Below, one piece after another: positions 9,801 through 59,057 of a stretch of DNA of 64,000 bases. The translations under genes were made by a program, and so were the position numbers. The stretch spans positions 76 to 64,075 of the forward strand of contig JAWOAU010000059.1 of NCBI GenBank assembly GCA_046498385.1, given 5' to 3'. The notes under the pieces were generated by a model. The model searched no databases and had not been told where the DNA came from. It worked only from the letters and a program-made list of their open reading frames with translations. How positions within the stretch are numbered: position 1 is the stretch's first letter; the number at the start of each line of letters is the position of its first letter. This stretch comes from Thermoplasmata archaeon (lineage in GTDB: Archaea; Thermoplasmatota; Thermoplasmata; Halarchaeoplasmatales; Halarchaeoplasmataceae).

Positions 9801-9990
9801 CAGTTCGGATGTGGGCAATCATAACCTACCGGCGGAGGTGACCACGGTGGGCTACTTCCAAGCAGCGGAGGAGTACAATGTTGCCTATACCACCATTGCT
9901 GATACCTTCATATTCGAACCAGGACAGGGTTACTGGCTGTACAACAGCGGGAACCAAACGGTAGCCTGGACCGTAGATTACAGGTTATAA
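6883..9990 (+). CDS. Secreted M14 zinc carboxypeptidase with carboxypeptidase-regulatory-like domain and C-terminal multidomain extension
   Basis: N-terminal signal peptide (KVVAISVLLILSISAYG). M14 zinc motif 'GNMHAREWSG'. Transthyretin-like CarbopepD_reg domain (GRVEDPEGVPVAGMEVVVENKDTGE...TDGNGYYEL). Then Kre9/Ig-like, lectin-like and FN3-like modules, and a C-terminal domain of about 173 aa paralogous to the S8 protein C-terminus. GGAGG Shine-Dalgarno 8 nt upstream. Confidence 0.85.
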   Translation: MFKNAKKSKVVAISVLLILSISAYGITSLGYVEDVQSTKYTANRSPYPFPDHYPSVEELYDWYDDLVVEFPNLVSKVHIGTSYEGRDLWVLEVTSDEDTQVDYKPGFFVDGNMHAREWSGNQVSAYFMWRLLNEYDTNETIYWLLNNRRIYVMPMQNPDGYTYDGDGGVGGGNNWRKNRNDSTPTAAIGVDLNRNWDIMWESGNPDPGFDDYRGEAPFSEYENWHERDFILNNSIDSYQNIHSYAGTLLIPLCYSSDPSPHDDWYRGMASHMTSLTSLMGDENSHYSFGQPHEEIGYSAPGGAGDWTYDALGIQSMVFELETGGGGFYPGTDDIMTINQDVDDSLVYQCRVADTDLGDGTNHLYPPIPYIVYGRVEDPEGVPVAGMEVVVENKDTGETISIDTDGNGYYELNYGNLVERGYALTDTFHISAWTNSQEFNIGDEWGRRIDMEVVVGGVPPEITLTSPNGGEQWHAFDEEDITWTTNQGDDPIDHVDLWYSVDAGTSWDRLDTEIDDTGSYTWTVSNEHSQECHVRARVIDSLGRWGEDVSDNVFEIVGLAPGPPRNLTVEHDSAPHMGIFDDFANGNYDNWTVYDGSWDATSGYLQGHGSISTPAEMHQENIGAYGRWEIDFQLSEISDASGYQITRSHFIQIDNADPRYSSGYYVIITGNIGGNGQINLWRWDNGSTPGSTTAGASWNPNTDTNTLAIERDESGVFTLYLNGATLTTGTDNTYTTNQYFGFRHNENPSGGDDHIIHEIRIETMGDGKEHNILTWNPSIDDPDEVSHYDIYCSDSPEGPWDESMLLHSVPANGSAEYHHLDSFKGMADETYWWYVVRAVGENGLVEENVNAIQEPGAEIITFTLELYSGGDSNGWNFVSFNLTSPDSSLENILENPDYGISGNYDRLIYFDASAGTWLSYVPGRLECFNNLQSWDHTMGIWIRMTADDGLTIEGTTPTNTTLTLQPGWNMVGLPSSDVGNHNLPAEVTTVGYFQAAEEYNVAYTTIADTFIFEPGQGYWLYNSGNQTVAWTVDYRL

Positions 9991-11112: not shown

Positions 11113-14100
11113 ATGGTTTCGGCAACAGTGAAAGATAGGATAATAATACATTTGTATACTTATCATGCTTCTCTGACTAAGCAAGGGATGCCCTATGAAT
11201 TATCTCAACCAGGTATTGCTGATGCCATAGGCATAAGCAGACCTCATCTGAGCCAGGAAATACGGAAGATGATACAGGATGAACCAACCTTGGTTAAAGA
11301 AGAGGTCATGCGGGTAAAAGGATTAAAGCGAAAAAGAAAGGTGTATTTCCTGACTCCGAAAGGAGTTTTAAAGGCACAATCATCGGTAGAAAAATTCAAT
11401 GAAGAAAGCATAACTGTTCTTACTTCGGATGGTAAAAAAGACGTCAAATTAAAAAACATCGGTACACATATAAAAGGGAACAACCCTCTTGTTACCGCTC
11501 TATCCAGAGTAGATGCAAAGGGTGTGTTGGACCTTACCGAGGCAAGAGAGTTCAAGGAGGATATATTCATAGACCGCAAAGAGGAAATGGCGGTACTTAA
11601 AAGCTCATTGAAAGAGGCAAGTGAAGAAGGCGGGAAAGTTTTTTTCGTCAAAGGAGATCCAGGTATCGGCAAGACCAGACTCCTAGAGGAGTTTGAAAAA
11701 CATGCATCTAGCGAGGATTTTATCTTTCTTTCCGGCAGAGCATATTTTGAGAGTTCGGACCCTTACCTTCCTTTTAAAAAGGCCTTCGAAGGCACAAAAG
11801 ATTTGGATCACTCTATGGATATTATCTATCCCGATGAAAAAAGAACAAAGGCGGAAGATAAGAATATGTTTGATTATCATAGGAGGACAACTTTCTTTGA
11901 GATAACCAAAGACATTAGGCACATGATAGACAAAAAGCCAATGGTCATATTTTTAGATGATATACAATGGGCGGATTCTGCAACACTGCAGTTGATTCAT
12001 TATCTTTCTGAGAATTTAGAAACATCGCCACTGCTGCTGATCGCCGCCTTTAGACCACAGGATGTAAATATGAACACTCTTTTAAAAGAGATCGTTCAAC
12101 GGATGAGGCGGGTAGGAACCTACGAGGAGATAGAATTAAAACCCCTAAAGTGGAAGCATACAAAAGAGATCATATCCAATATGTTGGGCGTATCCAGGAC
12201 ACCACCTGAATTTGTTAGATTACTTTATGAACTATCCCAGGGTAATCCTCTTTTCATTAAAGAGTGTGTAAAGAGTTTGATCGAAGAGGGCAATTTGGAT
12301 CCAAAGAGGAACCGATATCCCAAGGACCCTAGGCACGTCACCATACCCAATATTATTGTCAGCATAATTGAGAGAAGATTCAGCCAGTTATCCGAAGAAA
12401 CGCTTAAGATGCTCCAGATAGGCTGTATTATAGGAGAGGAAATACCCTTCGATCTGCTGTTAAAAGTTTGTGGGATGGACGAACTCGATGCATTCGACCA
12501 CATAGACATACTGTTGGGAACAAGTATATGGAAGGAGTTACCGGATCAGGACAAGTTTGCCTTCAGCCATGCATTGGTGCATCTAGCGGCATACAATCGA
12601 ATAAGTGATATCAAGAAAAGAAAGTTGCACAAGGCGGTGGCCGAGAAACTCGAAGAGCTATACGAAGAAGACATAGAAAAACATCATTCCAAACTAGCGA
12701 AGCATTTTGAAAGGGCGGGCATGATAGATAGGTCGATATCTTATTATTACAAAGCCGGTAAGAGCGCTGAAACAGTATATGCTCAAGAGGACGCTTTGGA
12801 GATGTATCAGAACGCTCTGAGGTTGTGGGATGGAGAGGATAAAGAACCAGGTATGAAACTGATGGAAAGTTTAGGCGACGTAAATTCTCTTTTAGGTGAT
12901 ATATCCTCCTGTAAGAAGTATTATGAACGGATATTAGATGAAACCGATAACGAGGTTACCGAACAAAGGATGTATCGTAAACTAGCCCGGTTGTGCGAGA
13001 CCCAAGGTGATTTTCGGAGGGTGAAAGAACTTGTAGACAAAGGTCTCGATAGCTATAAAAAGGATAACATCGAGGCGTGTAGATTGTATGAGATCCGGGG
13101 CTGGACATTGATGCAGACAGGGGATTTCCAAGGTGCGGAAGAGATGTTCATTACGGAAAGGCGTCTTTCTGAAGATTTAGGAGATCGAAAGGCCCTCAGC
13201 GATTCAAATCATAATCTAGGTACTTTGATGGTGTACAAAGCTAATTATGATGATGCCCGTCGATATTTAAAAGACGCTTTGAGGATACGTGAAAAGATCG
13301 GGGACAAAAAAAGCATAGCCAAGTCTTTGAATAATTTAGGCGTAGTTTACAAATGTACGGGGGACATAGAAGATGCTTTGGAAACCTATCAACGGTGTTT
13401 GGAAATAGAAAAGGAGATAGGTGATAGAGGAGGGATCGCGGCAACATCAGCCAATTTGGGGACTCTTCAGTATATGAACAATAATCCCAAGGAGGCCGGG
13501 GAGAACTTTGATCATGCCTTGGAGATATTTAGAGGTATAGGTGATAAGATGGGCGTTGCCATGGCCTACAATAATCTAGGCATAGTTCAGTTAGCCATGG
13601 GTGATCTAGAGAGTGCCCTCGAGTATCAAAAGAGAGGTCTTGAACTCCGAAAAAATGTGGGTGATAAACCCGGCTTGGGGATGACCCATGGTATCATAAG
13701 CAGCGTTTTTATCTTGAAGGGAGAACTGGATAAGGCTAAAGAACATATCGATGAGGCCTTTACTTTTTTCGAAAAGATCGATGATGTGAAAGGAATGGCT
13801 CTCATGAAGTCTCTTAAAGGAGATATTAAAAATGAGAACGAGCAGTTCGACGATGCAATAAGTTTGTACGAAGAAAGCCACAAAACTCTAAAACAGATCG
13901 GAGAGAAGTTTGAAAACATATCCAACTGCTGTCGACTGGCCGAGGTATATACTCATGTGGGAAAGTTAACCGAAGCCCGTAGGATGATAATCGAAGGCAT
14001 TATGCTTTCGAAGATGGTGGGTACGGATTATGATAAAGAAGTCTTCCTTAGGATATTAGGGATGGTCCTTCGAAAAGAAAAAAACTTCAAAGGCAGTTTT

Positions 14101-14310
14101 AAGGTTTTGAACAAAGCGGCAGGGCTCCTTGAAAAGAATAAAAAGTACATGGAACTTGCTAGGGTCTATTATGAACTAGGTAAAACTTTTTTGGAGGTCC
14201 ATGACGTACCTAATGGCAAAAGAAATCTTGCCAAGGCGAGAAACAAGTTCAACTCCATGGACATGGAACGCTGGAGTGCCCGAGCCCAGGGGATGTTAGA
14301 CGATATCTAA
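11113..14310 (+). CDS. Multidomain regulator: N-terminal winged HTH, STAND/AAA-type NTPase, C-terminal TPR array
   Basis: wHTH-like N-terminus (SQPGIADAIGISRPHLSQEIRKM). Walker A GDPGIGKTRLLEEF and Walker B-like VIFLDDIQWAD. At least 8 TPR repeats (NNLGVVYKCTGDIEDALETYQRCLEIEKEIGD...). Paralogous to the ATPase domain of the protein at 41768-43234. Confidence 0.7.
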   Translation: MVSATVKDRIIIHLYTYHASLTKQGMPYELSQPGIADAIGISRPHLSQEIRKMIQDEPTLVKEEVMRVKGLKRKRKVYFLTPKGVLKAQSSVEKFNEESITVLTSDGKKDVKLKNIGTHIKGNNPLVTALSRVDAKGVLDLTEAREFKEDIFIDRKEEMAVLKSSLKEASEEGGKVFFVKGDPGIGKTRLLEEFEKHASSEDFIFLSGRAYFESSDPYLPFKKAFEGTKDLDHSMDIIYPDEKRTKAEDKNMFDYHRRTTFFEITKDIRHMIDKKPMVIFLDDIQWADSATLQLIHYLSENLETSPLLLIAAFRPQDVNMNTLLKEIVQRMRRVGTYEEIELKPLKWKHTKEIISNMLGVSRTPPEFVRLLYELSQGNPLFIKECVKSLIEEGNLDPKRNRYPKDPRHVTIPNIIVSIIERRFSQLSEETLKMLQIGCIIGEEIPFDLLLKVCGMDELDAFDHIDILLGTSIWKELPDQDKFAFSHALVHLAAYNRISDIKKRKLHKAVAEKLEELYEEDIEKHHSKLAKHFERAGMIDRSISYYYKAGKSAETVYAQEDALEMYQNALRLWDGEDKEPGMKLMESLGDVNSLLGDISSCKKYYERILDETDNEVTEQRMYRKLARLCETQGDFRRVKELVDKGLDSYKKDNIEACRLYEIRGWTLMQTGDFQGAEEMFITERRLSEDLGDRKALSDSNHNLGTLMVYKANYDDARRYLKDALRIREKIGDKKSIAKSLNNLGVVYKCTGDIEDALETYQRCLEIEKEIGDRGGIAATSANLGTLQYMNNNPKEAGENFDHALEIFRGIGDKMGVAMAYNNLGIVQLAMGDLESALEYQKRGLELRKNVGDKPGLGMTHGIISSVFILKGELDKAKEHIDEAFTFFEKIDDVKGMALMKSLKGDIKNENEQFDDAISLYEESHKTLKQIGEKFENISNCCRLAEVYTHVGKLTEARRMIIEGIMLSKMVGTDYDKEVFLRILGMVLRKEKNFKGSFKVLNKAAGLLEKNKKYMELARVYYELGKTFLEVHDVPNGKRNLAKARNKFNSMDMERWSARAQGMLDDI

Positions 14311-25646: not shown

Positions 25647-25870
25647 ATATACCGTATCAGCGATTACAGATATGGATTAATAATCTTTCCCCGGAAGATT
25701 AAGATAAACTGCAGCGGCGCATGTTATTTCGTCGAGGTAAAGAAGATAGTTAACACATTTTATTTGAAATTAGACAAGAACTCACAACAAACTATCTCAA
25801 GAAAGGGCCGATTTAGCAAAACATTTAAATACAATTCATAATCTTCGTGGTAGTTAGAGGTAGAATAACC

Positions 25871-28800
25871 ATGAAATGGAAAAAGATGATGAGCCTGCTA
25901 TTGGTTGCTGTTTTAATCGGCAGCCTCTTTGCAGCGTTTGGAAGCAGTCTAGCATCGGCAGAAGGTGAGTATGTCGATGAGATACGACTGGAAGTAAGAA
26001 TGGAACAGAGTGTTGGTGTCGGGGATGCGGCCACAGGAGTGATAGACGCATTCCTCCAAGCAGTAGATGGACCGACCTACGATGGAATTGACGACGAATG
26101 GAAAGCTAATTTGATTCCATTGGAAAGCTTCGGTAGCTACACAGAGTTTTCGTACAATACCGCTTGGACCGAAGACTCCGGATTCGAAGTGGATACCACC
26201 GGCGATGGAGATCTACAAGTGAACCCCTTCGCAATGAGGGAGATACGTTTCGCAACTAACTTCATAGTCAGCAGACAGGAGTACGTTGAGGAACTCTACG
26301 ATGGGTTTTCCATACCTATGTATCAGGCCATATCTCCAAGTAACCCATCTTATGATGCGGAACTTAGACAGATAGACGAAAAATATGGCTTGACCTATGC
26401 AGGTGACTTCGAAAGGGGATACAACATGATACAGGATGCAATGACTGATGCCATGAACAATCCAGACATTGCAGGCGAGATACGGACCCCTGAAGACTCT
26501 CCTACTAACTACTGGCAGTACAAAGCACCCGGTGGTGCTTGGGAAGATATCGAGGTACATATGCTGATCCGTGTGGAAGACACCCGTCAAGAAATAGGTC
26601 TAAACCTTGCAGATCTACTCGAAGATTGTCACATAAAGGCAGAACGGGATGTGCAGGATAGAGACGCCATAGATATATGGCTATTCACAGACCCTGCGGA
26701 CATGGAATGGAGCTTGTACACCGGTGGTTGGATTTCATCGGCTACAGTAGCTTACCAGCACGCCACACCTGTTCAGTTCTACACTGATTATTACCCATAT
26801 ATGCCTGGAGGTATCTTTGGAGAAACAAATAGATACTACCACCTGAGAGACGAGCCCTATGCCCAGGAGTTGCTTGAGGATTGGGCAAATCCATTGATGG
26901 CTGGACAGATATCGGATGAGGAAACCTACTGGGAGTATGTAAGGCATATTTCAGATGTCGGCGTATACCAGGGTGCACGGGTATTCCTGGAGAACTCGGC
27001 GGATATAGTCCCGTTGAATGATGAGGCGGTAGTTGAAGTCGCCGCCGATGCGGTAACTGGATGGTCTCAGATATTTTCACCAAGGACTCTCAAGACCCAG
27101 GACGGCACCTTCACTGCAGCTCAATTCTCCGCCGCAGGTGTATTGTACATGGATAACTTCAACAATATTGATGGTTCATCCGATTACTACGGCATCCTGC
27201 AACAGAGAATATGTTTTGACCCCGGCACAACCTTAGATCCTAGCAAAGGCACTTCCATACCTGTTAGGGCGGACTTCGTGGACGATAACGGCGAGTATAT
27301 GCTGGATATGGACTATCATTTCGATAACGACGGAAACTTGGTAAAGGAACTCCCGATACCGGATAACGATAACGTCTGGTTCTACGACGTGCAGGCCGAG
27401 GAATGGATCAACGGCGGTCATGAATATGTACCGATAATGGAAGGTGATCCACCTGTTCAGACCGGTGCTGATCTTACGGAAGTCGATACGGTGGCAACCG
27501 CTGTTACCTACGACTATCACCTTGGTAAGTGGCACTCGGGACACGATTTGACGACCCGGGACATACTAGCTTGGCACGCCTTTTCAATGCAGCTTTCATA
27601 CGGTCCAGAATGGGGTGCCGTAGGAGACCAGTACTACCATGTAGGCTACGGTACTCAAAATAGACCTTATTACCAAAACGTGAAGGCGATCGAGGTCATC
27701 GACGCAGAAGAAGGCATATTGAAATTCTACGGTGATTACACCTTCCCTGCCGAATCAGAGATGGCTGGTTACTATGGTACATTCCCACAACACCCTTGGC
27801 AGATGTACGAGGCGGTCTCTCATCTAAGAGGTCAAACGGAGCTTGCATCTACCGATACGGTCTACGAATGGAGTAATATACCTGGTGCAGAATACGTTCA
27901 CTGGATCAGCTCATCCCAGACCGTTGACTACAGCGATACCCTTGCCAACATAGCCGATGATGGATGGATACCACCTTATCTACAGAGTGGTCCGACGCCG
28001 ATCACGGTTGGTGAGCTTGAGAACGAGATCGATGCGATACGTGGTTTCCAAGATCAATATGAACTATCGTTCATTTCTCAGGGACCTTTCATCTTTGTAC
28101 GGTACGATACAGCTAACTTAGTTGTTGAAATGGAGAGACACCCGTACCCCGATTACCCGTTACCCGACGATTACTGGAGAGACAAGTTGTACGTAGCTGG
28201 AATGCGGCATGGAACCATGACTGCACCAACCGAGGTCGTAGCCGGTGAAGCACTCGAAGCAGATGTGCGAGTCAGGGTATTCGAACAATATCCTCTCAGG
28301 AGAACACGAAACCTGGATCCCGCAGTGGATGACTATGAGGCTGAAGTCACCATATACGACGAATTCGACACAGTAGTAGACACTTTCGAGCCGGATTATG
28401 TGAATACAGATGGATCTTATCTTGCGGTTACCTTGCCCGGCAGCTTCACGACTGATCTTGAGGAGGGGTTCTATACCATAGAATTCCAGTCCAAGTTAGT
28501 TGACGAGGTAGCTACATCGGTTTCCAGTGCATCTTTCTGGCTTGCTGAGGAGAGTGCAGGTGGCCTCATCAACCATGAACTAGAGATCGAACCTACCAGC
28601 GGATATGCACCGCTAGAAGTTGACATCACGGTAAGTGCCGAAAACACCGGTGGTGAAGAACTGAGTGAGACGATAACTCTTGACGGTGCCGATACGGGAT
28701 ACACACTTAACGTCTCGGCCGGTGAAACCGCAGAGGAAACCTTCACACATACATTGGATGAGGTAGGCGAGTATACCTTTGAATTTGGTCCTGTATCTAG

Positions 28801-29443
28801 GGAAGTATCTGTAGTGGAAAAACCACCAGTCCCGGCAGAGCTGGAGGATTTCGAACTGTCGATCACCCCGACGACCGGAGATGCACCATTGGATGTAGAG
28901 ATATCCTTAAGTGTAACAAACACCGGTGAAGAGGATACGGAAGCTGTTCTGTACAGAGGTACTGAAGCCTATGAGACCTTTGATGTCTCACCTGGTGACT
29001 TCGAAACTACAATAAACAAAACCTTGGACGCAGGCGTTCACGTGTTCTACTGGGGCGAAGAATCTGTTCTCGTCAATGCAAGAGAAGATGTCGTTCCCGG
29101 TGAGCCTGAACTGGTGAACTTGGACTTAGGTGTGGAGCCGACCTCCGGAGAGGAACCGTTGGAAGTCACGATCTCCGTAAGTGCGGAGAACACAGGCGAC
29201 GCCGATGGCGAAGTAGATGTCATCATCGACGGTTCTATCGAGTACACGTTAACGGTACCTGCCGGTGAAACCGCAGACCACGAGTTCACTTACGAGTTCG
29301 AGAACCACGGAAACTACGACGTAGAGTTCGGTGATCTAACCGAGACTGTAGAAGTTGAGGAAGAAACCCCTGGATTTATGTTCCTCTTGCTGGCAGTGAG
29401 CGCCGTATTCGCGGTAGTGATCTACCACGTCAAGAAGCGGTAA
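25871..29443 (+). CDS. Extracellular solute-binding protein (family 5, Opp/Dpp-type) with three C-terminal CARDB-like repeats and a PGF-CTERM archaeosortase signal
   Basis: Sec signal (MKWKKMMSLLLVAVLIGSLFAAFGSSLASA|EG). SBP_bac_5-like body (the ORF track starts at 25847; the start here is chosen at MKWKK, which has a GAGGT Shine-Dalgarno). Three repeats of about 85 aa (PLEVDITVSAENTGGEE...TLDGADTGYTLNVSAGETAEETFTHTLDEVGEYTFEFG). C-terminal ...EETPGFMFLLLAVSAVFAVVIYHVKKR, which is PGF, then TM, then basic residues. TATA-like TTTAAATA at about 25823-25830. Confidence 0.7.
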   Translation: MKWKKMMSLLLVAVLIGSLFAAFGSSLASAEGEYVDEIRLEVRMEQSVGVGDAATGVIDAFLQAVDGPTYDGIDDEWKANLIPLESFGSYTEFSYNTAWTEDSGFEVDTTGDGDLQVNPFAMREIRFATNFIVSRQEYVEELYDGFSIPMYQAISPSNPSYDAELRQIDEKYGLTYAGDFERGYNMIQDAMTDAMNNPDIAGEIRTPEDSPTNYWQYKAPGGAWEDIEVHMLIRVEDTRQEIGLNLADLLEDCHIKAERDVQDRDAIDIWLFTDPADMEWSLYTGGWISSATVAYQHATPVQFYTDYYPYMPGGIFGETNRYYHLRDEPYAQELLEDWANPLMAGQISDEETYWEYVRHISDVGVYQGARVFLENSADIVPLNDEAVVEVAADAVTGWSQIFSPRTLKTQDGTFTAAQFSAAGVLYMDNFNNIDGSSDYYGILQQRICFDPGTTLDPSKGTSIPVRADFVDDNGEYMLDMDYHFDNDGNLVKELPIPDNDNVWFYDVQAEEWINGGHEYVPIMEGDPPVQTGADLTEVDTVATAVTYDYHLGKWHSGHDLTTRDILAWHAFSMQLSYGPEWGAVGDQYYHVGYGTQNRPYYQNVKAIEVIDAEEGILKFYGDYTFPAESEMAGYYGTFPQHPWQMYEAVSHLRGQTELASTDTVYEWSNIPGAEYVHWISSSQTVDYSDTLANIADDGWIPPYLQSGPTPITVGELENEIDAIRGFQDQYELSFISQGPFIFVRYDTANLVVEMERHPYPDYPLPDDYWRDKLYVAGMRHGTMTAPTEVVAGEALEADVRVRVFEQYPLRRTRNLDPAVDDYEAEVTIYDEFDTVVDTFEPDYVNTDGSYLAVTLPGSFTTDLEEGFYTIEFQSKLVDEVATSVSSASFWLAEESAGGLINHELEIEPTSGYAPLEVDITVSAENTGGEELSETITLDGADTGYTLNVSAGETAEETFTHTLDEVGEYTFEFGPVSREVSVVEKPPVPAELEDFELSITPTTGDAPLDVEISLSVTNTGEEDTEAVLYRGTEAYETFDVSPGDFETTINKTLDAGVHVFYWGEESVLVNAREDVVPGEPELVNLDLGVEPTSGEEPLEVTISVSAENTGDADGEVDVIIDGSIEYTLTVPAGETADHEFTYEFENHGNYDVEFGDLTETVEVEEETPGFMFLLLAVSAVFAVVIYHVKKR

Positions 29444-30762: not shown

Positions 30763-33700
30763 ATGAGACTTGAGGATATCAAGGAAAGAACATTTAGCAT
30801 CGCAAAAGAATTTAGAGGACAAAAGATGGGGGTGCTGGGAGTTAGCATAATCCTGTTCATGTTGATCCTTGCAATATTTGCTCCTATTTTAGCCCCGGGT
30901 GTTGGTGGGGAATGGAATAGTATAACTCGCTGGGAAGACAATCCGAGAGCCGCTCAGCCGGCCTGGGTTGATTATATACTTCCCGGTTCAAGAGCATCTC
31001 ACGAGATAATGGAGGACCCGGATGAATTCGATGAAGACCGGATGGAGTTGACGTATAATTACCAAAATGATTATGACTACCCTCCATCTGATGTAAGTGT
31101 TAGTGTGGCAGGGCAAAGCAACCGCCCGACAGTATATGTTTGGTTGACATTTGCTCGCCCTGACGGTAGGGAAATAGCTTTTGCTAGCGGGGAACGTGTA
31201 TCTGTTTTTCAGGAGTTACAATTTGTAGAACGCGGTGATGAAGTATTTGATTTCGGACTTGACGAGTTTGCCGTGGAGAGTTATATGAGGGTTGGTACCG
31301 TTTCAGACTCTCTAAGAGAGGCATTTTTGAGGTATGGGATAGAGTTGGATCAAGATGCCGTTGTGGAAAAAACTGATAACGGCTGGGAGGTCAAAAACGG
31401 CATATATTCTTATACTGTTTTAGATACTGGAGAAGAAGGCCTGTATCTCGATGTGTCTCCCGAGATGGCAGATACTTTTCAGCTAGATCCTGAGCTAGAA
31501 CAAGATTTGAACCCCGATTATATACATGATAATATCAGTGCTGCCTTTGAGGAAGTAAATTCAGATTTATCAGATTATGCGACCATCAGTTCTACTGCTG
31601 ATGGTTGGTTGATAGAAGATGGTATATTTTCCTTTAATATCGACGATAATCTGGTAGTTAGTATTGGAGTGAGTATCGGTGAACTCTTTGAGTTCGATAT
31701 GGCTGATGTTTTGTATCGGTTGTATTTCGACGAAGTAGGTGATGACCTTAGAGTAGCCTTCTCACACAACGACTTTTCCCTTTCCACTCATGCGACTATA
31801 TCTGATTTAGATACGGGGTGGTTTGTTGAAGATGGTATATACGAATTTACTATAACCGAGGATGACGAAATAGAGTATGGTATGAAGGTGGATGTGGAAT
31901 TAAAAGAAGGAGAATTATTCACATTAGATCCAGACATTGAAGAGTACCTTGAAGAAGGTCCAGTTGATAACAATGTAATTCAAGCTTTTGATGATAATGG
32001 GATCATTCTAGGTCGGAATGCTATAGTTAATGAAACCACCGGCGGCTGGGTGATCCAGGACGGCACGTATTTATTTGAGATAGATGGTGATCTAACGGTT
32101 CAAGCAAGAATGCATTCCTTTGAATTGGATGTTGAGTTAACTGAGATGGTGGAGTCTGTCGACACTACACTGCACGACAACGTGACAGAAGCCTTTGATG
32201 ATAATGGGATCTCGCTATCTAGTGACGCTAAAGATAAAGGACTAACAGAACTTGATGAGGGTTGGGAATTACAGGATGGAAAATATACCTTCACCATAGA
32301 TACTGATTTGAATGTTGAAATCGATATAAAGGACTCCTTTGTATTTATATTAGATGAAGAAAAGGGCCTTGAGGCGGCCTTTTCTGAAAATCAATATACT
32401 CTGTCTCGGCGGGCGGCGATAACCGAATCGGACGATGCAGCATGGATGATCGAAGACAGGGTATTCAATTATACAGTAGCTCATTTAGAGAACGATTTAT
32501 ACTCCGTTCAATTGAGTATGAGAGACATGTTCCAGTTTGATTTAGACTACAAAATTTTCCTTGAGGAAGGTACCGTTAGACCTTCTTTGATCGATTTGTT
32601 TGATGAGAACGGGATCACTCTTTCAGATACCGCGGAGATAGTAGGTCAAGATGAAGATGGGTTGATTTGGCATATCAAGGAAGGTGAAGAGAGGTACTAT
32701 GTCGAGGACCTCGGGAACCTGGTTGCTCAGGTGTATTATCTTAACCCCGAAGAGTATGTTTTTATAGGTGACATAGGTGATAGAAGTACGGCCACCGATG
32801 GCCTGATAGATATCTTTACAGAACAGGGATTGGTTATCGATAGCGATACAATGCTTCGACAGTGGGATACTCATGCTACAGAATGGTGGATAGAACATCC
32901 TACCGGATTCATGGCAAAGATAGAAAACGATGGTATGAATATATATGCACTAACCGAATTCGTATATTCTTTTACTATACGTTCTAAGGCGGGAAGAGAA
33001 TCCGTTTATAACTTTGGTTTGGACTATCATGATGAAAACGAAGACATACCTATGCAGGGACAGATTAACTCTCAGGATATCCCCTTCGCTAACGCTGAAG
33101 ATGGCAATATTTTGTTGAACCCCCAGTCTCTGAAAGGCGAATATACCCTAACGGTTAGAACCGCTTATGCATCATCTTTTGACGATGAAACAACCAGAGT
33201 GATATTTAGAGGTCGGAAGTATGGTTTAATGGGCACGGACACGTCTAGACGTGACATTGCTTTAGGTTGGGTGTGGGGTGCCAGGTGGGCTTTAATGATC
33301 GGGGCCATCATCTCCATAACCACGGTCACCCTTGGTCTATTATATGGTATGACCAGTGCATATTATGGTGGATGGGTGGATGAGTTCATGCAAAGGCTAA
33401 ACGAGGTTTTGATAGGTATTCCTATGTTCCCTATCCTCATAATCACCATGTTCATCATGGGTAGATCCATATGGATATTCGTTGGCCTTTACACTCTATT
33501 AGGTTGGCGTGGATTAGCGAAAATTATTCGGTCGCGAGGTATTCAAATACGTCAGGATACATACATAGAAGCGGCACAATCATTAGGCTCCAGCGGTGGT
33601 CGTATTATCACCAAACACATGATACCCCAGCTGTTACCATACGGCATCGCGGAAGGGGCGTTGTTGATTCCCCTGGTCATCATCGCTGAGGCGGGCCTTA

Positions 33701-33900
33701 GTGTTCTGGGCTTAGGTGATCCAAACGTGGTCACATGGGGCCGTATGCTTTCACAGGCCCATAGTGGAGCGGCAACCACTCAGGGACTGTGGTGGTGGGT
33801 ACTCTTACCAGGACTGGGCATAACTCTTGTGGGTTTCGGATTTATAGCTACGGGGATGGCTTTAGAACGTGTTATTAATCCTAAGATGAGACAGAGGTAA
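30763..33900 (+). CDS. oppC: Oligopeptide ABC transporter permease (OppC/DppC type) with an acidic repeat-containing extracytoplasmic insert of about 780 aa after TM1
   Basis: N-terminal OppC signature (LGVSIILFMLILAIFAPILAPG). Conserved C-terminal permease core (residues about 835-1045, EAA region IRSRGIQIRQDTYIEAAQSLGSSGGRIITKHMIP). The insert holds at least 8 repeats of about 45 aa (F.[DE]NGI.LS.....[VI]......GW.[IV]EDG.Y.F.ID.DL.V). Confidence 0.8.
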   Translation: MRLEDIKERTFSIAKEFRGQKMGVLGVSIILFMLILAIFAPILAPGVGGEWNSITRWEDNPRAAQPAWVDYILPGSRASHEIMEDPDEFDEDRMELTYNYQNDYDYPPSDVSVSVAGQSNRPTVYVWLTFARPDGREIAFASGERVSVFQELQFVERGDEVFDFGLDEFAVESYMRVGTVSDSLREAFLRYGIELDQDAVVEKTDNGWEVKNGIYSYTVLDTGEEGLYLDVSPEMADTFQLDPELEQDLNPDYIHDNISAAFEEVNSDLSDYATISSTADGWLIEDGIFSFNIDDNLVVSIGVSIGELFEFDMADVLYRLYFDEVGDDLRVAFSHNDFSLSTHATISDLDTGWFVEDGIYEFTITEDDEIEYGMKVDVELKEGELFTLDPDIEEYLEEGPVDNNVIQAFDDNGIILGRNAIVNETTGGWVIQDGTYLFEIDGDLTVQARMHSFELDVELTEMVESVDTTLHDNVTEAFDDNGISLSSDAKDKGLTELDEGWELQDGKYTFTIDTDLNVEIDIKDSFVFILDEEKGLEAAFSENQYTLSRRAAITESDDAAWMIEDRVFNYTVAHLENDLYSVQLSMRDMFQFDLDYKIFLEEGTVRPSLIDLFDENGITLSDTAEIVGQDEDGLIWHIKEGEERYYVEDLGNLVAQVYYLNPEEYVFIGDIGDRSTATDGLIDIFTEQGLVIDSDTMLRQWDTHATEWWIEHPTGFMAKIENDGMNIYALTEFVYSFTIRSKAGRESVYNFGLDYHDENEDIPMQGQINSQDIPFANAEDGNILLNPQSLKGEYTLTVRTAYASSFDDETTRVIFRGRKYGLMGTDTSRRDIALGWVWGARWALMIGAIISITTVTLGLLYGMTSAYYGGWVDEFMQRLNEVLIGIPMFPILIITMFIMGRSIWIFVGLYTLLGWRGLAKIIRSRGIQIRQDTYIEAAQSLGSSGGRIITKHMIPQLLPYGIAEGALLIPLVIIAEAGLSVLGLGDPNVVTWGRMLSQAHSGAATTQGLWWWVLLPGLGITLVGFGFIATGMALERVINPKMRQR

Positions 33901-37072: not shown

Positions 37073-37278
37073 GTAGGGACACAGAATGGCTTCAAAAAAA
37101 ATCACCTTTGGAGGCTGTCCGAGAAATACAAAAATAGGAGAAAAGACTCTATCGATTGATTGATATCTCTCAATACCCCTGTCTAAGGAATATAAAAACC
37201 TATCTATAGGGTGGAAAAATAATACTCGGACAGGCCCTTTGCTAAAAAATAATCTAGTCAAGGTGTAATTGTAGTTAT

Positions 37279-37305
37279 GAAAAATAAAAAAAGAAAGGGG
37301 GTTTT
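37279..37305 (-). terminator. T-rich tract (minus strand CCCCCTTTCTTTTTTTATTTTTC) immediately 3' of the surface-protein gene
   Basis: Oligo-T archaeal-type terminator sequence read directly. Confidence 0.4.
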
Positions 37306-37313
37306 AGAGAGGT

Positions 37314-40300
37314 TTAAAATTCCTCTTCTTCCTCGAAGAGTTCTTCCTCTTCTTCCTCGAAGAGTTCTTCTTCCTCTTCTTCTTCGAACAGGTCCTCCTC
37401 TTCTTCCTCGAAGAGTTCTTCTTCCTTTTCTTCCTCGAAGAGTTCTTCTTCCTCTTCTTCTTCGAACAGGTCCTCTTCTTCCTCGAAGAGTTCTTCTTCC
37501 TCTGGACCGGCTGCCGGTTTCTTCTTCATCATCACAACTACAATTATGATGATTATGATGATGATCAGCACCACAGCTCCGATACCGCCGAACGGTAGGA
37601 CACCGCCTTCTTCTTCACCAATATCTTCGTATTGTAATGCACCTGACAGTGTTCCTGTGAATGTACCTGTCTCGTCTCCGTCCAAGTCGTCGTGGGATAC
37701 TGCGTACGTGAATGTCATCTCGTCAGGGTTTCCTTCAAGTTCTACCGTGAAGGTTGCTTTACCGCTTGAATCGGTTGTACTCGTCTCCTCTTCGCCATTC
37801 CAGGAAAGGGTCACCGTTGCGTCGTTTACCGCTTCACGGTTTACATCTCTGATGGGGCCGACAGTTATGGTATATTCCTTAACAGGTGGTTCCGGTTCTT
37901 CTCCGATATCCAATTGGAAGGCATCCGATCGGGATCCTGTGAATTGTCCCTCGTAGTCTTCTTCAAGGTCTTGGTGCGATACAGTGAAGGTGAAGCTCGC
38001 TTCTGCAGGATCGAACTCTACTTCGAAGTCTGCTATACCGTCTGAATCAGTATAGCTTGTACCTATCTCATCTCCATCAAGAGATAAACTTACCATAGCA
38101 CCTTCTACCGGATCGTAGCTGATATCAACGGCTGGTCCTACCTGGACAGTCTGTGGTTCGCCGACAAGTAATTTTATTGCCCCGCTTTCAGGTCCCTCGA
38201 AGAATACCTCCTGCGGTTCCACAAGCTCGTCGTGATCAATGGTTAGTCCAAACTGGGTATCTCCCTGAACCTGGAAATTAGCATAGAAACTAGCCATGCC
38301 GTTCGTGTCCGTAGTGAGGGTCGCTATGTTTGCACCAGTTGATATTCGTTCAACCTGTATTGGAACTCCTTCGAGAGGTCTCTCTCCGATATCGTGTACC
38401 GGACCTATAGTTATCTCTGGCTTTTCCAGTAGCGTTAGTGATATATCGTCTTCACCATCTGTACTGATCGCCCTACCGATATAGTCTTGGTGACTGATCG
38501 TCACGGCGACTTGGCTATATGGGAAAGCAATCTTAGGCACGTTGACTGTACCCATGCTGTCTGTGTAATAAATCCATGTCCTGACATCTGGGTCTCCAAT
38601 CTGTATCTTGACACCTTCGATAGGATTCTGCCCTTCATCAACGGTTTCTATATTGTATGAGGAATACACATAGATATCCCGATTCATCGTTAGGCGTATC
38701 GCATCACTAGTCCAATCATCTTCATCGGTGATACTAATACTGAACTCTACACCTGTGGGTTGGAAGCTGATCACACTGAATTCCGCAAGACCATCTTCGT
38801 CGGTCATAGCAACACCTGTGAAGTTCATGTCCTCATATTCGGCTCTAACACGGTAGTTTTCCAGTGGATTTCCCTGTGTATCTAAAACCGGGCCTATCGT
38901 GAAGACAATATCCTCGTAGTATATCGCTTCAGAAATTATACCCGTGAATTCCGCAGTCTTTGTATAGAAATCCTCATGGGTTATTGTAACACTGAAATCA
39001 GTCTCATAGGGGCTAAAGTCAACGTTGAAGTGGAAATATCCATCGTCGTCCGTAGTACCTACTGTTGAGTCTGTTTCTCCGCCGTATTTCCAGGAGATTT
39101 CTAAATCCGCTCCTTCGATCGGTATCTCCGTATCGGCATCGGCCATGTAGAGAACCGGGCCGACTTCAACGGTCCATTCCGTACGATGTTCCATATATAT
39201 CGTGTACTCCTCACCGACAAATTCACCAGTTTGCAGGTAGTAGTCTCGATGAGTTGCGGAGTAAGTAAATTCTGCTTCAGGCAGGTTTATGGGTGCCGTA
39301 TGTATGTAATATATCTCACCGTCTTCTCCGGTTTCATTGCTATAACTCCATGGTATATCGAGTGTATTCAGTGTTATCTCGGCCCCCTCTATCGGGCTAT
39401 CATCTGCTTGGTCGAGCACCGTTACGGTGAGTGGTGAAAGGGTAAACGGTACAGGGTCACCATAGAATGTATCCTCTGTACCTTCAAATTCGAAGTCGAG
39501 GACTGCTCGGTATTCGTAAATTTGATAGTAATCTAGACCGGTCAGCGTGTAGTTTGCTTCACCAGAGTCGTAATACGTTTCTTGACCTACTGGCCCATCC
39601 CATACTCCTGCGCCCAATTCTCGGTATTCAAAGGATACCTCGACTTCGTCCATTATACTTATTTTGTGTTCGGCGTTCAACTGTACGGAGTCTGGAGTGG
39701 GGTCAGATACGGTTGTTGTGGTGATCGATGGGACATACTGGAGTATGCATGCCTCCATCATAAAGGTGAAGTCAAAACCAAAGTCTTGAAGAGTACTCCA
39801 ATTTTTATCGTCGAAACTGAGGTAACCACCATGTTCTACATAACCATTAACCATGGGTGCGCAATACTGTGATGGCTCTTGTTGTTCAATTTCAACTACC
39901 ATCGCATATACTGTATTTTCATCTATCTCGATAGCTTCTTCGAATTCTAACTCAACCCATCCTTGGGCTTCCTCGGCGGGTTCAAAGGATATATTGCCTA
40001 TCTCCGTGCCGCTAACACCGCCTTCTCGGATGCGTGCAGTCATGGGAACCGCAACACGATCATAAACAGCGACCTTCTGTATCTGTCCAGGGAAATCGAA
40101 GGGATCAAGAGTCATTGCAAACCACCAAATTGCAGGTTCCTCTAGTCCTAAAGCGTCGTCATCATCGGGTCGATGGGGTGCATCGTATCGGTAGTACCAA
40201 TCTCCCGGAGGTAATTCATCTTCTAAGAGATCCAACTCCGCACTCTCGCTCGTTGAGACAGTCTGACTTATTGTTTCAATATCTGAACCCTGTGCTGAGG

Positions 40301-40397
40301 TAGGTCCAGGTATCGTCATTAGGGCCGCAAAACCTGCGAATACCAGGATAAATGCCACCACTAATGCCTTCAATCTTGCACTTTTCTTTTCGTTCAT
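37314..40397 (-). CDS. Large acidic cell-surface protein: signal peptide, about 9 carboxypeptidase-regulatory-like (transthyretin-fold) repeats, C-terminal TM and (E)n-LF repeat cytoplasmic tail
   Basis: Signal peptide (LKALVVAFILVFAGFAALMTIPGPTSAQG). Repeats of the type IGPV.D..G.P[IL]EG..[IV].......TTD.DG...F. TM GIGAVVLIIIIIIIIVVVMM followed by KKKPAAGPEEEELFEEEEDLFEEEEEEELF... (7 LF units). GGAGG Shine-Dalgarno 8 nt upstream. Confidence 0.75.
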   Translation of the reverse strand: MNEKKSARLKALVVAFILVFAGFAALMTIPGPTSAQGSDIETISQTVSTSESAELDLLEDELPPGDWYYRYDAPHRPDDDDALGLEEPAIWWFAMTLDPFDFPGQIQKVAVYDRVAVPMTARIREGGVSGTEIGNISFEPAEEAQGWVELEFEEAIEIDENTVYAMVVEIEQQEPSQYCAPMVNGYVEHGGYLSFDDKNWSTLQDFGFDFTFMMEACILQYVPSITTTTVSDPTPDSVQLNAEHKISIMDEVEVSFEYRELGAGVWDGPVGQETYYDSGEANYTLTGLDYYQIYEYRAVLDFEFEGTEDTFYGDPVPFTLSPLTVTVLDQADDSPIEGAEITLNTLDIPWSYSNETGEDGEIYYIHTAPINLPEAEFTYSATHRDYYLQTGEFVGEEYTIYMEHRTEWTVEVGPVLYMADADTEIPIEGADLEISWKYGGETDSTVGTTDDDGYFHFNVDFSPYETDFSVTITHEDFYTKTAEFTGIISEAIYYEDIVFTIGPVLDTQGNPLENYRVRAEYEDMNFTGVAMTDEDGLAEFSVISFQPTGVEFSISITDEDDWTSDAIRLTMNRDIYVYSSYNIETVDEGQNPIEGVKIQIGDPDVRTWIYYTDSMGTVNVPKIAFPYSQVAVTISHQDYIGRAISTDGEDDISLTLLEKPEITIGPVHDIGERPLEGVPIQVERISTGANIATLTTDTNGMASFYANFQVQGDTQFGLTIDHDELVEPQEVFFEGPESGAIKLLVGEPQTVQVGPAVDISYDPVEGAMVSLSLDGDEIGTSYTDSDGIADFEVEFDPAEASFTFTVSHQDLEEDYEGQFTGSRSDAFQLDIGEEPEPPVKEYTITVGPIRDVNREAVNDATVTLSWNGEEETSTTDSSGKATFTVELEGNPDEMTFTYAVSHDDLDGDETGTFTGTLSGALQYEDIGEEEGGVLPFGGIGAVVLIIIIIIIIVVVMMKKKPAAGPEEEELFEEEEDLFEEEEEEELFEEEKEEELFEEEEEDLFEEEEEEELFEEEEEELFEEEEEF
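37320..37500. repeat. Tandem, hierarchically organised DNA repeat (units of about 21-24 bp, CTTCTTCCTCGAAGAGTTCTTC-like, within a duplication of about 72 bp) encoding the (E)n-LF tail
   Basis: Direct repeats visible in the nucleotide sequence. ctcttcttcttcgaacaggtcctc occurs twice, about 72 bp apart. Confidence 0.8.
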
Positions 40398-41767: not shown

Positions 41768-43234
41768 CTATCGCCGGTCGAGGAGTTTGCGGCATCGTTC
41801 GAGTAACTTTTCTTCGTTTATATCCTGAAAAATCTTTTTTGCTTCCTCAAGACTAGCAGTTCCCAAACTGTCATCATGTTTAGAGCCGTATTTCATAAGT
41901 TGTATCCCTAAAAGCTTTCTTATACTCTTAATTTCAACAGGTACAGATGTTTTCGTCGAGAGTTCCAAGGCCGAGCGGTAGTACTTGATTTTTTCCAGCT
42001 CCCCTTCAGCCGATTCGCTAGCTTTGATATAGTTCTCAAAAGCACGGTCATACAACCTCGCCCTCTCGTAATGCACCGCCAGCTGTGGACGGTAAGACTC
42101 TAAAGAATCAGCGTATAAACGTTCAATAGCTTCGGCGGCCTTTTTGTGATATGATACTTTATTATATTTAAATTGAGAGCGGTAGAGTATGTCTCGGAAG
42201 ACCGAGTGTTTAAAGGAGTACCCCTCACCACCCTTTTCTTCTACCAAGATACCTCTGTCCAAAGCGATATCGAGCATATCAAGTATTTTCATATTGTCCA
42301 TCTCTGTAACTTCAGACAATAAGGTATAATCAAAAACGTCTCCCAGTACACTTGCCCGCTGGAGCAGGTCCTTTGTGTTTTTATCTAACTTCACCATTTT
42401 CCTTTCCACCACGTATCTGACCGTGGACGGCCATTCCAGTGTATCGTCTGATACAGGGTAAAAGTCGTTCTCCGGGTTGATGGAGTTCTTGGATAACATC
42501 GATTTAACGGTTTCCGTAATAAATAACGGGTTACCTTCGGTTTTAGAATGGATGAACTCACAAAAATTGGAAGTGGGCTTCCTGCCTAATATGTTTTTGA
42601 GTATCTCTCTAGTTTCGTCGATCTCAAGGGGTCCGAGTCTCATATGATCGCACAGATCTTTTTGCCGCAGATGATAAAGAGTTTCTTTCAGTGAATGGTA
42701 ATCAGCGGTTTTTTCCGGCAAGCAAGTGGCGACCAGCATTATGGGCTGCTCTTCGATATTCTCGGCGATGTATCTGAAAGCTAAAACGGAGGATTTGTCC
42801 GCCAAATGCAGTTCCTCGATGATCATAAGCATTGGCTTTTTCGAAGCCATTTTGCAAAGTTCTTCCAGGGCCTGTCTCAGTGCATTGGGATCCTTTTCAT
42901 GAAAATGGATGATATCGTTTTGCTCAAATTTTTTGGATAATATAGATATCCCCAGCGGTAGGGAATAATTTTTGTTTAGAGATGGTCTTAGATCTTTAAA
43001 AGCATCATTTAACGGATGATAGGGCTCACCGTCCCGGGATACCCCGGAACCTTTGATACAGGTAATCTCTCTATCGCTCGCCACCTTGCAAAGCCATTCT
43101 ATCAACGCGCTTTTTCCTACCCCCCTCTCGCCAGATATTATTACCGTTCTTCCTCTGCCTTTTTTAACTTCATCAACAACTGTTTTTAATTTATCTCGTT
43201 CTCGCTCCCGGCCCACCAATATATCCTCTTTCAT
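41768..43234 (-). CDS. STAND/AAA-type NTPase regulator (paralog of the ATPase module of the protein at 11113-14310) with helical/TPR-like C-terminus
   Basis: Walker A ISGERGVGKSALIEWL, Walker B-like MLMIIEELHLADK. Collinear similarity to the other STAND protein (..FKHSVFRDILYRS... aligns to ..FSHALVHLAAYNR...). Lies 6 bp downstream of the response-regulator gene on the same strand. Confidence 0.7.
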   Translation of the reverse strand: MKEDILVGRERERDKLKTVVDEVKKGRGRTVIISGERGVGKSALIEWLCKVASDREITCIKGSGVSRDGEPYHPLNDAFKDLRPSLNKNYSLPLGISILSKKFEQNDIIHFHEKDPNALRQALEELCKMASKKPMLMIIEELHLADKSSVLAFRYIAENIEEQPIMLVATCLPEKTADYHSLKETLYHLRQKDLCDHMRLGPLEIDETREILKNILGRKPTSNFCEFIHSKTEGNPLFITETVKSMLSKNSINPENDFYPVSDDTLEWPSTVRYVVERKMVKLDKNTKDLLQRASVLGDVFDYTLLSEVTEMDNMKILDMLDIALDRGILVEEKGGEGYSFKHSVFRDILYRSQFKYNKVSYHKKAAEAIERLYADSLESYRPQLAVHYERARLYDRAFENYIKASESAEGELEKIKYYRSALELSTKTSVPVEIKSIRKLLGIQLMKYGSKHDDSLGTASLEEAKKIFQDINEEKLLERCRKLLDRR

Positions 43235-57680: not shown

Positions 57681-59057
57681 TCAGCCGTGTGAAGTTTGGA
57701 TGATATATTTTCCATGTTCGATCAGATTTTGATTTTTCATGTTCATTGTGTGATACACACTTGTCAATTTTTCATAGATCCTAGCGCCTTTTTCAGTTCT
57801 GTTTCCACCGCTGATTTTTCTTGCTATGACACTGTGACGTAGTGCACGTTCACATCTATTGTTTGTACCTTCGACGTATGGATTTTTAACAAATTGGAAC
57901 AGGCTATCCTTTCGTTTCAGTAAATTTTTGACAAACTTACTGCATCGATGAGATTTATACCTACGTTTTAGTTCGTTTGACAATTCCATGTACAGCTGTT
58001 TGATATTTTCATCAGAACCTTGATGATCGAAACTCTTAGCTTTTGCATATATCTTCTTAAGCACCCTATGTATGTGTTCACCTTCTTCACCGTAGTATTT
58101 TGCCAGTTCTTTTGAATCAACGAGTAGATGCGACCAACATATTTGCTGTGGCCTTTTTCCGGTCTTTTTGGCTAATGTATCGTAGGCTGAAAACCTATCG
58201 TGCACATCCACTCCGTTGGGTTTACTACCCAACACTTTGAGTGGTACTTTATGGCATCGTGAATTTGCAATTTTATACAATGCCAGACCATCTGTTACAA
58301 AAGCCCACAACCAAACATTTTCTCCGTCTATCCTCCATGATGTTTCGTCCATGTACCGGACAGGAGCCTCTCGGAGTTTTCCTACGAGTTGGTCGTAATA
58401 TTGTCCGAACTCGTCAGCGATCCGTTCAAGGATATTACAGACCTCTCCTTCGCTTATTTTCAGGTTATATATATCCTTCAACAGTTTTACGATCGATCCA
58501 ACAGGTAACCGGAGTCCGACCTTCAAATATACCACTGTAAGCATGGTCCTCAGGCCCAGTCGTGCATTTGGTAAAGCATCTGTTACAACCGTCTCAACTA
58601 ACTTCTCACAGTCTCTGCAGTAACGGCGTTCTATAACATATTTGGTAACAACTGGATAGACTGGTGGGATGTCTTCGACAGTTCTTGTCCGTTGCTCTTG
58701 TACATTTTCGCTAAGATGATCGCCTCCGCAATCGGGACAGATATTGACAGGGACATCAATTGTCTTATCCACAAGTTTAGGCAATTTGCGATAGCGCGGT
58801 TTATGGCCTTTCTTTGCTCCCTTTTTCCTAGGAGTGGCCGTTCGTACTTTTTCTTTGATGGCATACGGTTTACCGCCTTTAACACCCACAATTTCCGGGT
58901 GTCGCATGCGATATTCTTTGTATTCTTTCTCAACTTTCTTTTTTTCTTCTGCTAGCTTTGTGATCCTCTCTTTTAATTCCTCAATTTCCTTCTTGAGCTG
59001 CTCGTTCTCTTTCTTTAGCTTCTTGTTTTCTTTGATTTTTACCACCGTCCTTTTCAT
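57681..59057 (-). CDS. IS66-family transposase (TnpC-like): coiled-coil/leucine zipper, Cys4 zinc finger, DDE domain
   Basis: N-terminal coiled coil (KENEQLKKEIEELKERITKL). Zn finger CPDCGG...CRDCEK. DDE region (RYMDETSWRIDGENVWLWAFV ... VDVHDRFSAYD ... QICWSHLLVD), matching the IS66 signature. Confidence 0.85.
   Translation of the reverse strand: MKRTVVKIKENKKLKKENEQLKKEIEELKERITKLAEEKKKVEKEYKEYRMRHPEIVGVKGGKPYAIKEKVRTATPRKKGAKKGHKPRYRKLPKLVDKTIDVPVNICPDCGGDHLSENVQEQRTRTVEDIPPVYPVVTKYVIERRYCRDCEKLVETVVTDALPNARLGLRTMLTVVYLKVGLRLPVGSIVKLLKDIYNLKISEGEVCNILERIADEFGQYYDQLVGKLREAPVRYMDETSWRIDGENVWLWAFVTDGLALYKIANSRCHKVPLKVLGSKPNGVDVHDRFSAYDTLAKKTGKRPQQICWSHLLVDSKELAKYYGEEGEHIHRVLKKIYAKAKSFDHQGSDENIKQLYMELSNELKRRYKSHRCSKFVKNLLKRKDSLFQFVKNPYVEGTNNRCERALRHSVIARKISGGNRTEKGARIYEKLTSVYHTMNMKNQNLIEHGKYIIQTSHG

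Follow-up and report, generated by a model that had tools for sequence, protein, structure and literature searches.

In Archaea and eukaryotes, the acidic C-terminal tail of the ribosomal P-stalk carries a strictly conserved Leu-Phe (LF) that binds hydrophobic grooves of aEF1alpha and aEF2 (PMC4267659), and these tails act in multiple copies per ribosome as a local ligand pool (PMC7768734, PMC5887453). Here we describe a repeated acidic tail with LF on a putative surface protein, encoded in a stretch of 64,000 nucleotides from a Thermoplasmata archaeon of the order Halarchaeoplasmatales (GenBank assembly GCA_046498385.1, contig JAWOAU010000059.1; the whole stretch is hereafter termed the window, and its numbering is used throughout). 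This type I membrane protein has, behind its single C-terminal transmembrane (TM) helix, seven units of a Glu run and LF, and the P-stalk tail appears to be the closest functional analogue in Archaea. Both tails are acidic, flexible (by prediction in our case) and LF-bearing, here seven times. However, the P-stalk holds one motif per chain, at the extreme C-terminus of a ribosomal protein, whereas the family described below has 6-13 motifs on one chain behind the TM of an exported protein. The P-stalk protein aP1 of P. horikoshii has further hydrophobic residues (Leu100, Leu103, Leu106 and Phe107), and the termini also differ, being LxxLxxLF-G in aP1/P0 and EEEEEF in the window tail; we claim no homology between the two.

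One way to read the likeness is that the tail is a membrane-anchored mimic of the P-stalk C-terminal domain, in which 7-13 LF motifs, each in an acidic tract, would concentrate stalk-binding factors under the membrane below the surface protein, be they translational GTPases (aEF1alpha, aEF2, aIF5B, ABCE1) or others. A P-stalk tail is expected to work in the cytoplasm of a halophile too, and if the mimicry were real, it would tie the biogenesis or state of the envelope to translation in a wall-less halophilic archaeon. A Pfam scan of the window protein returned no stalk domain, and the lineage's own ribosomal stalk protein was absent from all the DNA fetched for the lineage loci. We consider the mimicry highly improbable.

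Phe in or after an acidic run is also found in other docking motifs. FFAT, with two phenylalanines in an acidic tract (core EFFDAxE), is a eukaryotic motif that binds the MSP domains of VAP and tethers at membranes, and the C-terminal tip of SSB (DDDIPF) is the single docking motif of a bacterial DNA-binding protein. In both, Phe docks a disordered tail onto a partner and the acidic tract makes the initial electrostatic contact, much as proposed here. However, the window tail contains neither consensus, neither motif forms an array of 7-13 copies, and they are not homologous to it. The window tail contains no FF and no F-F-D-A of the FFAT core, and one orthologue only has EEEEEFFEEED.

The complete gene lies on the minus strand at 37314..40397, ending with a TAA stop codon at 37314-37316, and the open reading frame (ORF) encodes 1027 amino acids (aa), 100% identical to the NCBI entry [quoted passage not shown]. 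The protein starts with a signal peptide (residues 1-35, 40293..40397), MNEKKSARLKALVVAFILVFAGFAALMTIPGPTSA followed by QG, with predicted cleavage after TSA, and continues with a large ectodomain (residues 36-937, 37587..40292). The single poly-Ile TM helix GIGAVVLIIIIIIIIVVVMM comes next (residues 938-957, 37527..37586; AlphaFold2 draws a helix at 941-956), followed by a KKK stop-transfer or positive-inside cluster (residues 958-960, 37518..37526) and a linker PAAGP (residues 961-965, 37503..37517; P-A-x-G-P or similar in orthologues). The remainder comprises the seven acidic units (residues 966-1021, 37335..37502), delimited by sequence, Tandem Repeats Finder and orthologue comparison, and a terminal EEEEEF that ends the chain (residues 1022-1027, 37317..37334). 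In order, the units read EEEELF, EEEEDLF, EEEEEEELF, EEEKEEELF, EEEEEDLF, EEEEEEELF and EEEEEELF, thus 67 residues past KKK in total with the linker and the terminus; EEEEDLFEEEEEEELFEEEE is an example of a two- or three-unit stretch. Because the protein has a signal peptide, a single TM and the KKK cluster, the positive-inside rule places the tail on the cytoplasmic side by prediction. AlphaFold2 modelled residues 961-1027 as coil with a pLDDT of ~30, and the tail is predicted to be intrinsically disordered.

A sequence-only reading of this DNA had already pointed to the tail, quoting it at 37317-37530, which corresponds to residues 957-1027. Our translation reproduced the quoted string of seven units after TM and KKK exactly, and the proposed cytoplasmic side agrees with the topology predicted above. 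Its claim of a strict alternation of poly-Glu and Leu-Phe stands as far as the seven units go, with the correction that D precedes LF in two of them and K breaks one E-run, and the protein it called giant is better termed large. It had also raised the concern that the tail might come from reading past the true stop into an intergenic repeat. Nothing but the low complexity of the region speaks for such an annotation artefact; there is no earlier in-frame stop, and every orthologue has the same frame and tail, with a stop right after E4-5F or E4L. An oligo-T tract CTTTCTTTTTTTATTTTT also lies 17-34 nt past the stop on the coding strand (37280..37297, minus strand), a likely transcript end, as oligo-T after the stop is typical for archaeal transcripts. 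An antisense ORF of 90 aa on the plus strand (37277-37549) reads FFL/EE repeats and is merely a shadow of the repeat. The artefact is refuted by the conservation data and can be regarded as virtually impossible.

These data came from successive kinds of search. A first whole-protein, word-based search returned only 4 proteins, as poly-E words swamped the candidate list, and two homologues among them, 37-39% identical, had the same ending. A pattern scan using one genome per GTDB species gave 30 loci, nine of them from haloalkaliphilic Thermoplasmata, including one in a Halanaerobiaceae bin. Each of the nine encodes a protein of 860-1140 aa with the same signal peptide, poly-Ile TM, MMKKKP and a tail of E-run, any residue, hydrophobic residue and Phe. 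The locus in the bacterial bin (L018, PWDW01000108.1, Halanaerobiaceae bacterium T1Sed10_99) is a 2.8-kb contig with a clear family member, holding signal peptide, poly-Ile TM and E/LF tail, and was probably mis-binned into a bacterial metagenome-assembled genome (MAG). Finally, an exhaustive HMMER search of 1.84 billion representatives identified tail-bearing homologues in 15 clusters, each <50% identical, that share the plan TM-KKKP-(E-run, P/D, hydrophobic residue, Phe)n; the suspicion that the pattern might not be conserved in any homologue is thereby rejected. MMKKKP is invariant in one orthologue alignment (A2) and nearly so across the family. The relatives belong to Ca. Halarchaeoplasma halalkaliphilum, Ca. 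Haladaptatiplasma halalkaliphilum, Ca. Saliniplasma and other soda-lake Thermoplasmata, and a scan of JGI metagenomes gave six loci, mostly the same soda-lake proteins. Ca. Halarchaeoplasmatales/Haloplasmatales is a MAG-only order, thought to follow a salt-in strategy and having acidic proteomes (PMC11332174). As far as the genes tell, the host protein is a lineage-specific major surface protein of this extremely halophilic, salt-in order of Thermoplasmatota.

Searches by the tail itself gave less. A profile of three tails alone against a 5.8-billion-protein database returned zero matches at E<=1e-3, since low complexity and database size defeat such a search, and viral contigs scanned with the DNA pattern yielded 0 matches. 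Bacterial F-EEEE matches (Lachnospiraceae, Thalassomonas, Streptomyces, Spirochaetia) were internal DDF/EEF low-complexity regions without a TM and were set aside as unrelated. Small ORFs of 30-60 aa consisting nearly entirely of Glu runs and Phe or Trp (MKRFEEEEEEFEEEEEEF...EW) were seen in Sulfolobales MAGs (L006 4909-5064 and L012 2584-2676, both on the minus strand), at the same position downstream of the same conserved 427-aa gene in both, and similar small Glu-rich ORFs occur in two Nitrososphaeria loci (L013, L021); they may be either micro-proteins or GAA-repeat artefacts. The literature that we searched for the motif strings contained no published description of the motif or of acidic cytoplasmic tails of archaeal S-layer proteins, in agreement with the earlier reading, which knew of no such motif.

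The tails of the 15 clusters extend 55-92 aa past the TM, have a net charge of -28 to -61 with 56-69% acidic residues, and carry 6-13 Phe each, at an F-F spacing of 5-9 residues (mean 7.1). Their alphabet is nearly all E, F, L, P, D, G, K and A (672 E, 140 F, 90 L, 58 P, 51 D and 45 G), and Y, W, S, H, N and C were counted zero times in these tails. Phe is preceded by L in 81 cases and by E in 47, the preceding residue being hydrophobic in about two thirds, and most orthologues have a Pro ahead of Leu-Phe. Phe closes the chain in 7 of the 15 clusters, Leu in four and an acidic residue in four, with endings mostly of the E4-5F or E4L kind. Across the sequences compared, Phe is the invariant feature of the tail.

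A chain of such charge might be a non-specific polyanionic brush or spacer without a defined partner, acting by charge and hydration. It could be a hydrated bristle under the membrane that binds K+ or other cations and sets the lateral spacing of the surface protein or keeps out nucleoid and ribosomes, with the occasional Leu-Phe merely tuning compaction or contact with the membrane interface. The strongly acidic composition, the predicted disorder and the acidic proteomes of the salt-in host lineage (PMC11332174) fit this explanation, as do the acidic tails without regular LF in distant relatives. However, charge alone would allow mixtures of D, E, S, G and T, as found in those distant relatives, whereas the tails described here keep Phe at a regular spacing and lack Y and W, and the position before Phe is hydrophobic about two times in three across genera. 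In addition, molar KCl screens electrostatics, so hydrophobic contacts should dominate. We regard the brush as unlikely.

Another question is whether the tail is used at all or is merely tolerated. Tandem Repeats Finder detected repeats with periods of 27, 51 and 75 nt in 37320-37503, and the DNA pattern for three consecutive F-EEEE units had its sole match in the 64-kb window here, against 0.00 expected from shuffles; in a six-frame scan of the window, this was the only acidic tail and the only E-run/LF repeat. The codons are mixed GAA/GAG for Glu, CTC/CTG for Leu and TTC for Phe. Since the Glu codons GAA/GAG are the reverse complements of the Phe/Leu codons TTC/CTC, EE-LF can be a 12-nt palindrome, and short inverted repeats (CTCTTC...GAAGAG) fill 37320-37503, which is why a terminator scan calls false plus-strand "terminators" there. 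A neutral explanation would thus be that a (GAR)n tract grew by slippage, with Leu and Phe codons derived from short inverted copies of Glu codons (GAAGAG being the reverse complement of CTCTTC), and persists without being used, or counts for no more than 3' mRNA structure. The higher-order DNA repeats and the hairpin-capable pairs agree with this, as do near-identical units within two of the orthologues (L002 and L008) and unit indels between strains. The repeat number, which the earlier reading had suggested to compare, does differ between strains: one protein (P0009) is identical over 192 aa to that of a metagenome contig (L033) except for one additional EEEEELF, and two pairs from clusters of >=90% identity (P0015/P0152 and P0012/P0159) differ by tail indels. 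Assembly collapse is a possible source of such differences in unit number. Judging from the sequences, slippage also acts on the tails.

The tail length is nevertheless bounded to the 55-92 aa given above despite gain and loss of units between near-identical strains, and the pattern persists across genera whose ectodomains are only 27-48% identical. Over the orthologue tails Leu is encoded by five codons (CTC, CTG, CTA, CTT, TTG) and Phe by both TTC and TTT, a synonymous turnover from which we conclude that the amino acids are conserved, not the identity of the repeat DNA. Ser codons (TCY), likewise pyrimidine-only, never appear, and the palindromic codon pair is not kept in orthologues with CCT-CTA-TTC or CCC-TTG-TTC. 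The mRNA fold of the tail is predicted to be slightly stabler than in codon-shuffled controls, unevenly among orthologues (z -0.6 to -3.7); as this excess was modest and inconsistent, we did not adopt RNA structure as the main explanation. Neutral expansion is in our view very unlikely, and from these sequence comparisons we regard the tail as genuine coding sequence that is selectively maintained.

The two ends of the protein that touch the membrane are also held more tightly than its exposed part. Eight orthologues have, on average, 70% pairwise identity in the signal peptide and 64% in TM plus KKKP, compared with 37% in the ectodomain. Relative to the closest orthologue (L001), the TM protein sequence is identical, with 12 synonymous and 0 non-synonymous codon changes in 24 codons, and the signal peptide has seven synonymous changes and one non-synonymous in 33 codons. 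Such a bias indicates that the ends are held by purifying selection and not by recent recombination, and it hints that signal peptide and TM make a specific contact with each other, the translocon or an intramembrane enzyme.

This opens the possibility of a C-terminal sorting or processing signal, in which the acidic tail would serve as a handle for recognition or would be shed after intramembrane cleavage. The small-residue motif (GG/AGIG), the poly-Ile helix and KKK resemble the tripartite signals of sortase, archaeosortase and rhombosortase, and an exported protein rich in beta-sandwiches that ends with small residues, a hydrophobic helix and a Lys cluster recalls archaeal C-terminal anchors in general; the unusually strong purifying selection on the TM would also agree. 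The NCBIfam model NF041738 (GG_III-CTERM) scored 17.2 bits on residues 937-960 of the window protein, below its cut-off of 22 bits, and 15.5, 22.8, 24.7, 26.4, 16.7 and 18.2 bits on six orthologues, thus above the cut-off on the TM region in three of the six. However, GG_III-CTERM is itself a putative sorting signal, and the match ends at residue 960 of 1027 and not at the C-terminus, so the model covers the TM part without the acidic tail. As far as we know, sorting signals of this type stop a few residues past the basic cluster, whereas here the conserved 55-92 aa come after it. The PGF-CTERM signal of archaeosortase A is not matched: GGVLPFGGIG stands before the TM with no PGF, an NCBIfam scan gave no PGF-CTERM match, and PGF-CTERM has its basic cluster at the extreme C-terminus, whereas 67 residues follow KKK here. 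No PEF motif is present, and the window holds no archaeosortase or rhomboid gene. By contrast, an Opp-type solute-binding protein in the same window (1198 aa, 25847-29443, plus strand), which has CARDB/PKD-like domains, does end in a PGF-type TM and KKR (...TPGFMFLLLAVSAVFAVVIYHVKKR). We judge a sorting or processing role of the tail to be decidedly unlikely.

The explanation that we favour, although tentatively and at less than an even chance, is that the tail is a multivalent linear-motif array of the "Phe in acidic tract" kind that docks a cytoplasmic partner; we infer this from its conservation and multivalency, the predicted disorder and the modular reuse. The earlier reading had suggested partner docking, binding of divalent cations, or sorting or retention, and among these docking is favoured on the grounds just given. 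The array would offer 6-13 motifs, each a Phe in a Glu tract, usually preceded by Leu, Ile, Val, Met or Ala and often by Pro or Asp. The Phe dipeptides would act as "stickers" that enter hydrophobic pockets, either on neighbouring tails or on a cytoplasmic partner, of which there may be several. The Glu runs would be hydrated, K+-compatible spacers, holding the chain open and in solution at molar KCl besides lending an initial electrostatic steer. In this way the tail would couple the protein outside to something beneath the membrane. The conservation of Phe is in keeping with screened charge attraction and stronger hydrophobic contacts in molar KCl, and a continuous helix is disfavoured because Pro precedes Leu-Phe in most orthologues. 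Conservation far in excess of composition, with the tail plan kept while ectodomains average 37% identity, argues for docking, as do the restricted alphabet, the bounded length, the synonymous turnover of Leu and Phe codons and the lack of such tails on other membrane proteins of the window and 11 lineage loci, and the acidic LF tail of the P-stalk may serve as a precedent. Several points weigh against it. Low-complexity repeats can persist and homogenise through slippage alone, and the choice of L and F could be partly mutational, given that Glu codons reverse-complement Phe/Leu codons. All sequences come from MAGs or metagenomes and the presence of the tail in the mature protein is predicted from genes alone, while the AlphaFold2 model was built on an alignment of 3 sequences. 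In addition, the acidic tails of more distant relatives in Ca. Natronoplasma, described below, are not strictly LF-periodic, and the acidic character may be the ancestral and sufficient feature.

Modular reuse is seen in the same environments, where the tail is not restricted to the family. A 3109-aa S8 subtilase with a coiled-coil stalk (P0019) has an acidic-Phe tail after its TM and ends ...TKKGSEPSEEEPMFEEEEFEEESFDEEPFDEEEAEEELFEEESFDEEFEEDF, and in another protein (L037) the same repeats stand behind a different TM. Two further proteins (L010, 7213-7998, minus strand, and P0141) combine an Ig-domain ectodomain, a TM and RKK with CPxCG zinc ribbons, two or three in number, and behind these EEEELF/EEEEPF or EEEEL repeats, thus the tail can be combined with a metal-binding cytoplasmic module. 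The search for E(n)-LF tails elsewhere, as the earlier reading had proposed, thus located them on other type I proteins but not close to the gene itself, as no other membrane protein with such a tail was found in the 64-kb window and 11 lineage loci. Proteins from more distant Ca. Natronoplasma relatives (P0045, P0066, P0136) have TM, Lys cluster and acidic tail without strict LF periodicity, and from their irregular tails we conclude that strict periodicity is a derived trait of one clade, set within a more widespread habit.

The ectodomain of ~900 residues is very acidic (pI ~4) with five N-x-S/T sequons, a number that ranges from 0 to 30 per orthologue. Pfam, AlphaFold2 and Foldseek outline a DUF4082-like N-terminal region, weakly matched, followed by ~9 beta-sandwich domains, with Pfam matches to CarboxypepD_reg, MG4, Big_1, bMG3 and a SpaA-type beta-sandwich; the Pfam scan found no catalytic domain in the 1027-aa protein. 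The AlphaFold2 model has a mean pLDDT of 57 and is all-beta in the ectodomain, at 65-87 within domains. Foldseek against the PDB found macroglobulin/Ig-domain arrays only, at TM-scores of ~0.1, with no bearing on the tail, and a PDB sequence search gave a lone marginal match (8qox_B, E=0.0027) that is irrelevant to the tail. These domains agree with the earlier view of an exported adhesin- or S-layer-like protein. With archaeal S-layer and major surface glycoproteins the protein, known from genes alone, shares the signal peptide, Ig-like chain, very acidic ectodomain, C-terminal membrane anchor, fast-evolving exposed part and conserved syntenic position. We know of no described S-layer protein with a long repeated cytoplasmic tail.

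The gene neighbourhood is conserved, with an Opp-type ABC operon and two small ORFs on one side and, in most genomes, RtcB and a PQQ beta-propeller membrane protein on the other, from which we take the homologues to be orthologues, with apparently a single copy in each genome. These neighbours offered no functional hint at a partner. Elsewhere the window is an ordinary stretch of archaeal chromosome, encoding GlnA, PheT, LeuRS, GyrA/B, ScpB, GlmS, an Opp-type ABC transporter and an IS66 transposase. The Opp-type transporter is unusual both in the solute-binding protein described above and in its OppC-like permease (1045 aa, 30763-33900, plus strand), where a very large insertion separates the N-terminal TM from the permease core. 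An S8 subtilase (567-4856) and an M14 carboxypeptidase (6883-9990) have a common C-terminal domain of ~115 aa, 60% identical (4497-4853 and 9631-9987, plus strand), that holds ...TLxPGWNMVGLPS...GQGYW... without a TM, is covered by no Pfam model and also ends another protein (P0017); this domain may be specific to the lineage and serve in surface attachment or sorting. The IS66-family transposase (57681-59057, minus strand) and two STAND/AAA_16 NTPases (11113-14310, plus strand, and 41768-43234, minus strand), one with a long TPR array, showed no connection to the tail in our analysis of the window.

To our knowledge, archaeal surface and S-layer proteins have been treated as purely external, with a lipid or a bare TM as their anchor. 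What appears to be new here is the repeated cytoplasmic tail, for which we found no earlier description, on an archaeal surface protein of type I. A conserved, motif-bearing tail that is reused on a protease and on Zn-ribbon proteins would imply a link between the envelope and cytoplasmic machinery in uncultured extreme halophiles, and it would be a simple natural example of a sticker-and-spacer disordered polymer suited to molar KCl, whose short sequence signature can guide searches for similar proteins. Should the partner prove to be the translation machinery or the division apparatus, the tail would represent a new kind of outside-in coupling in Archaea.

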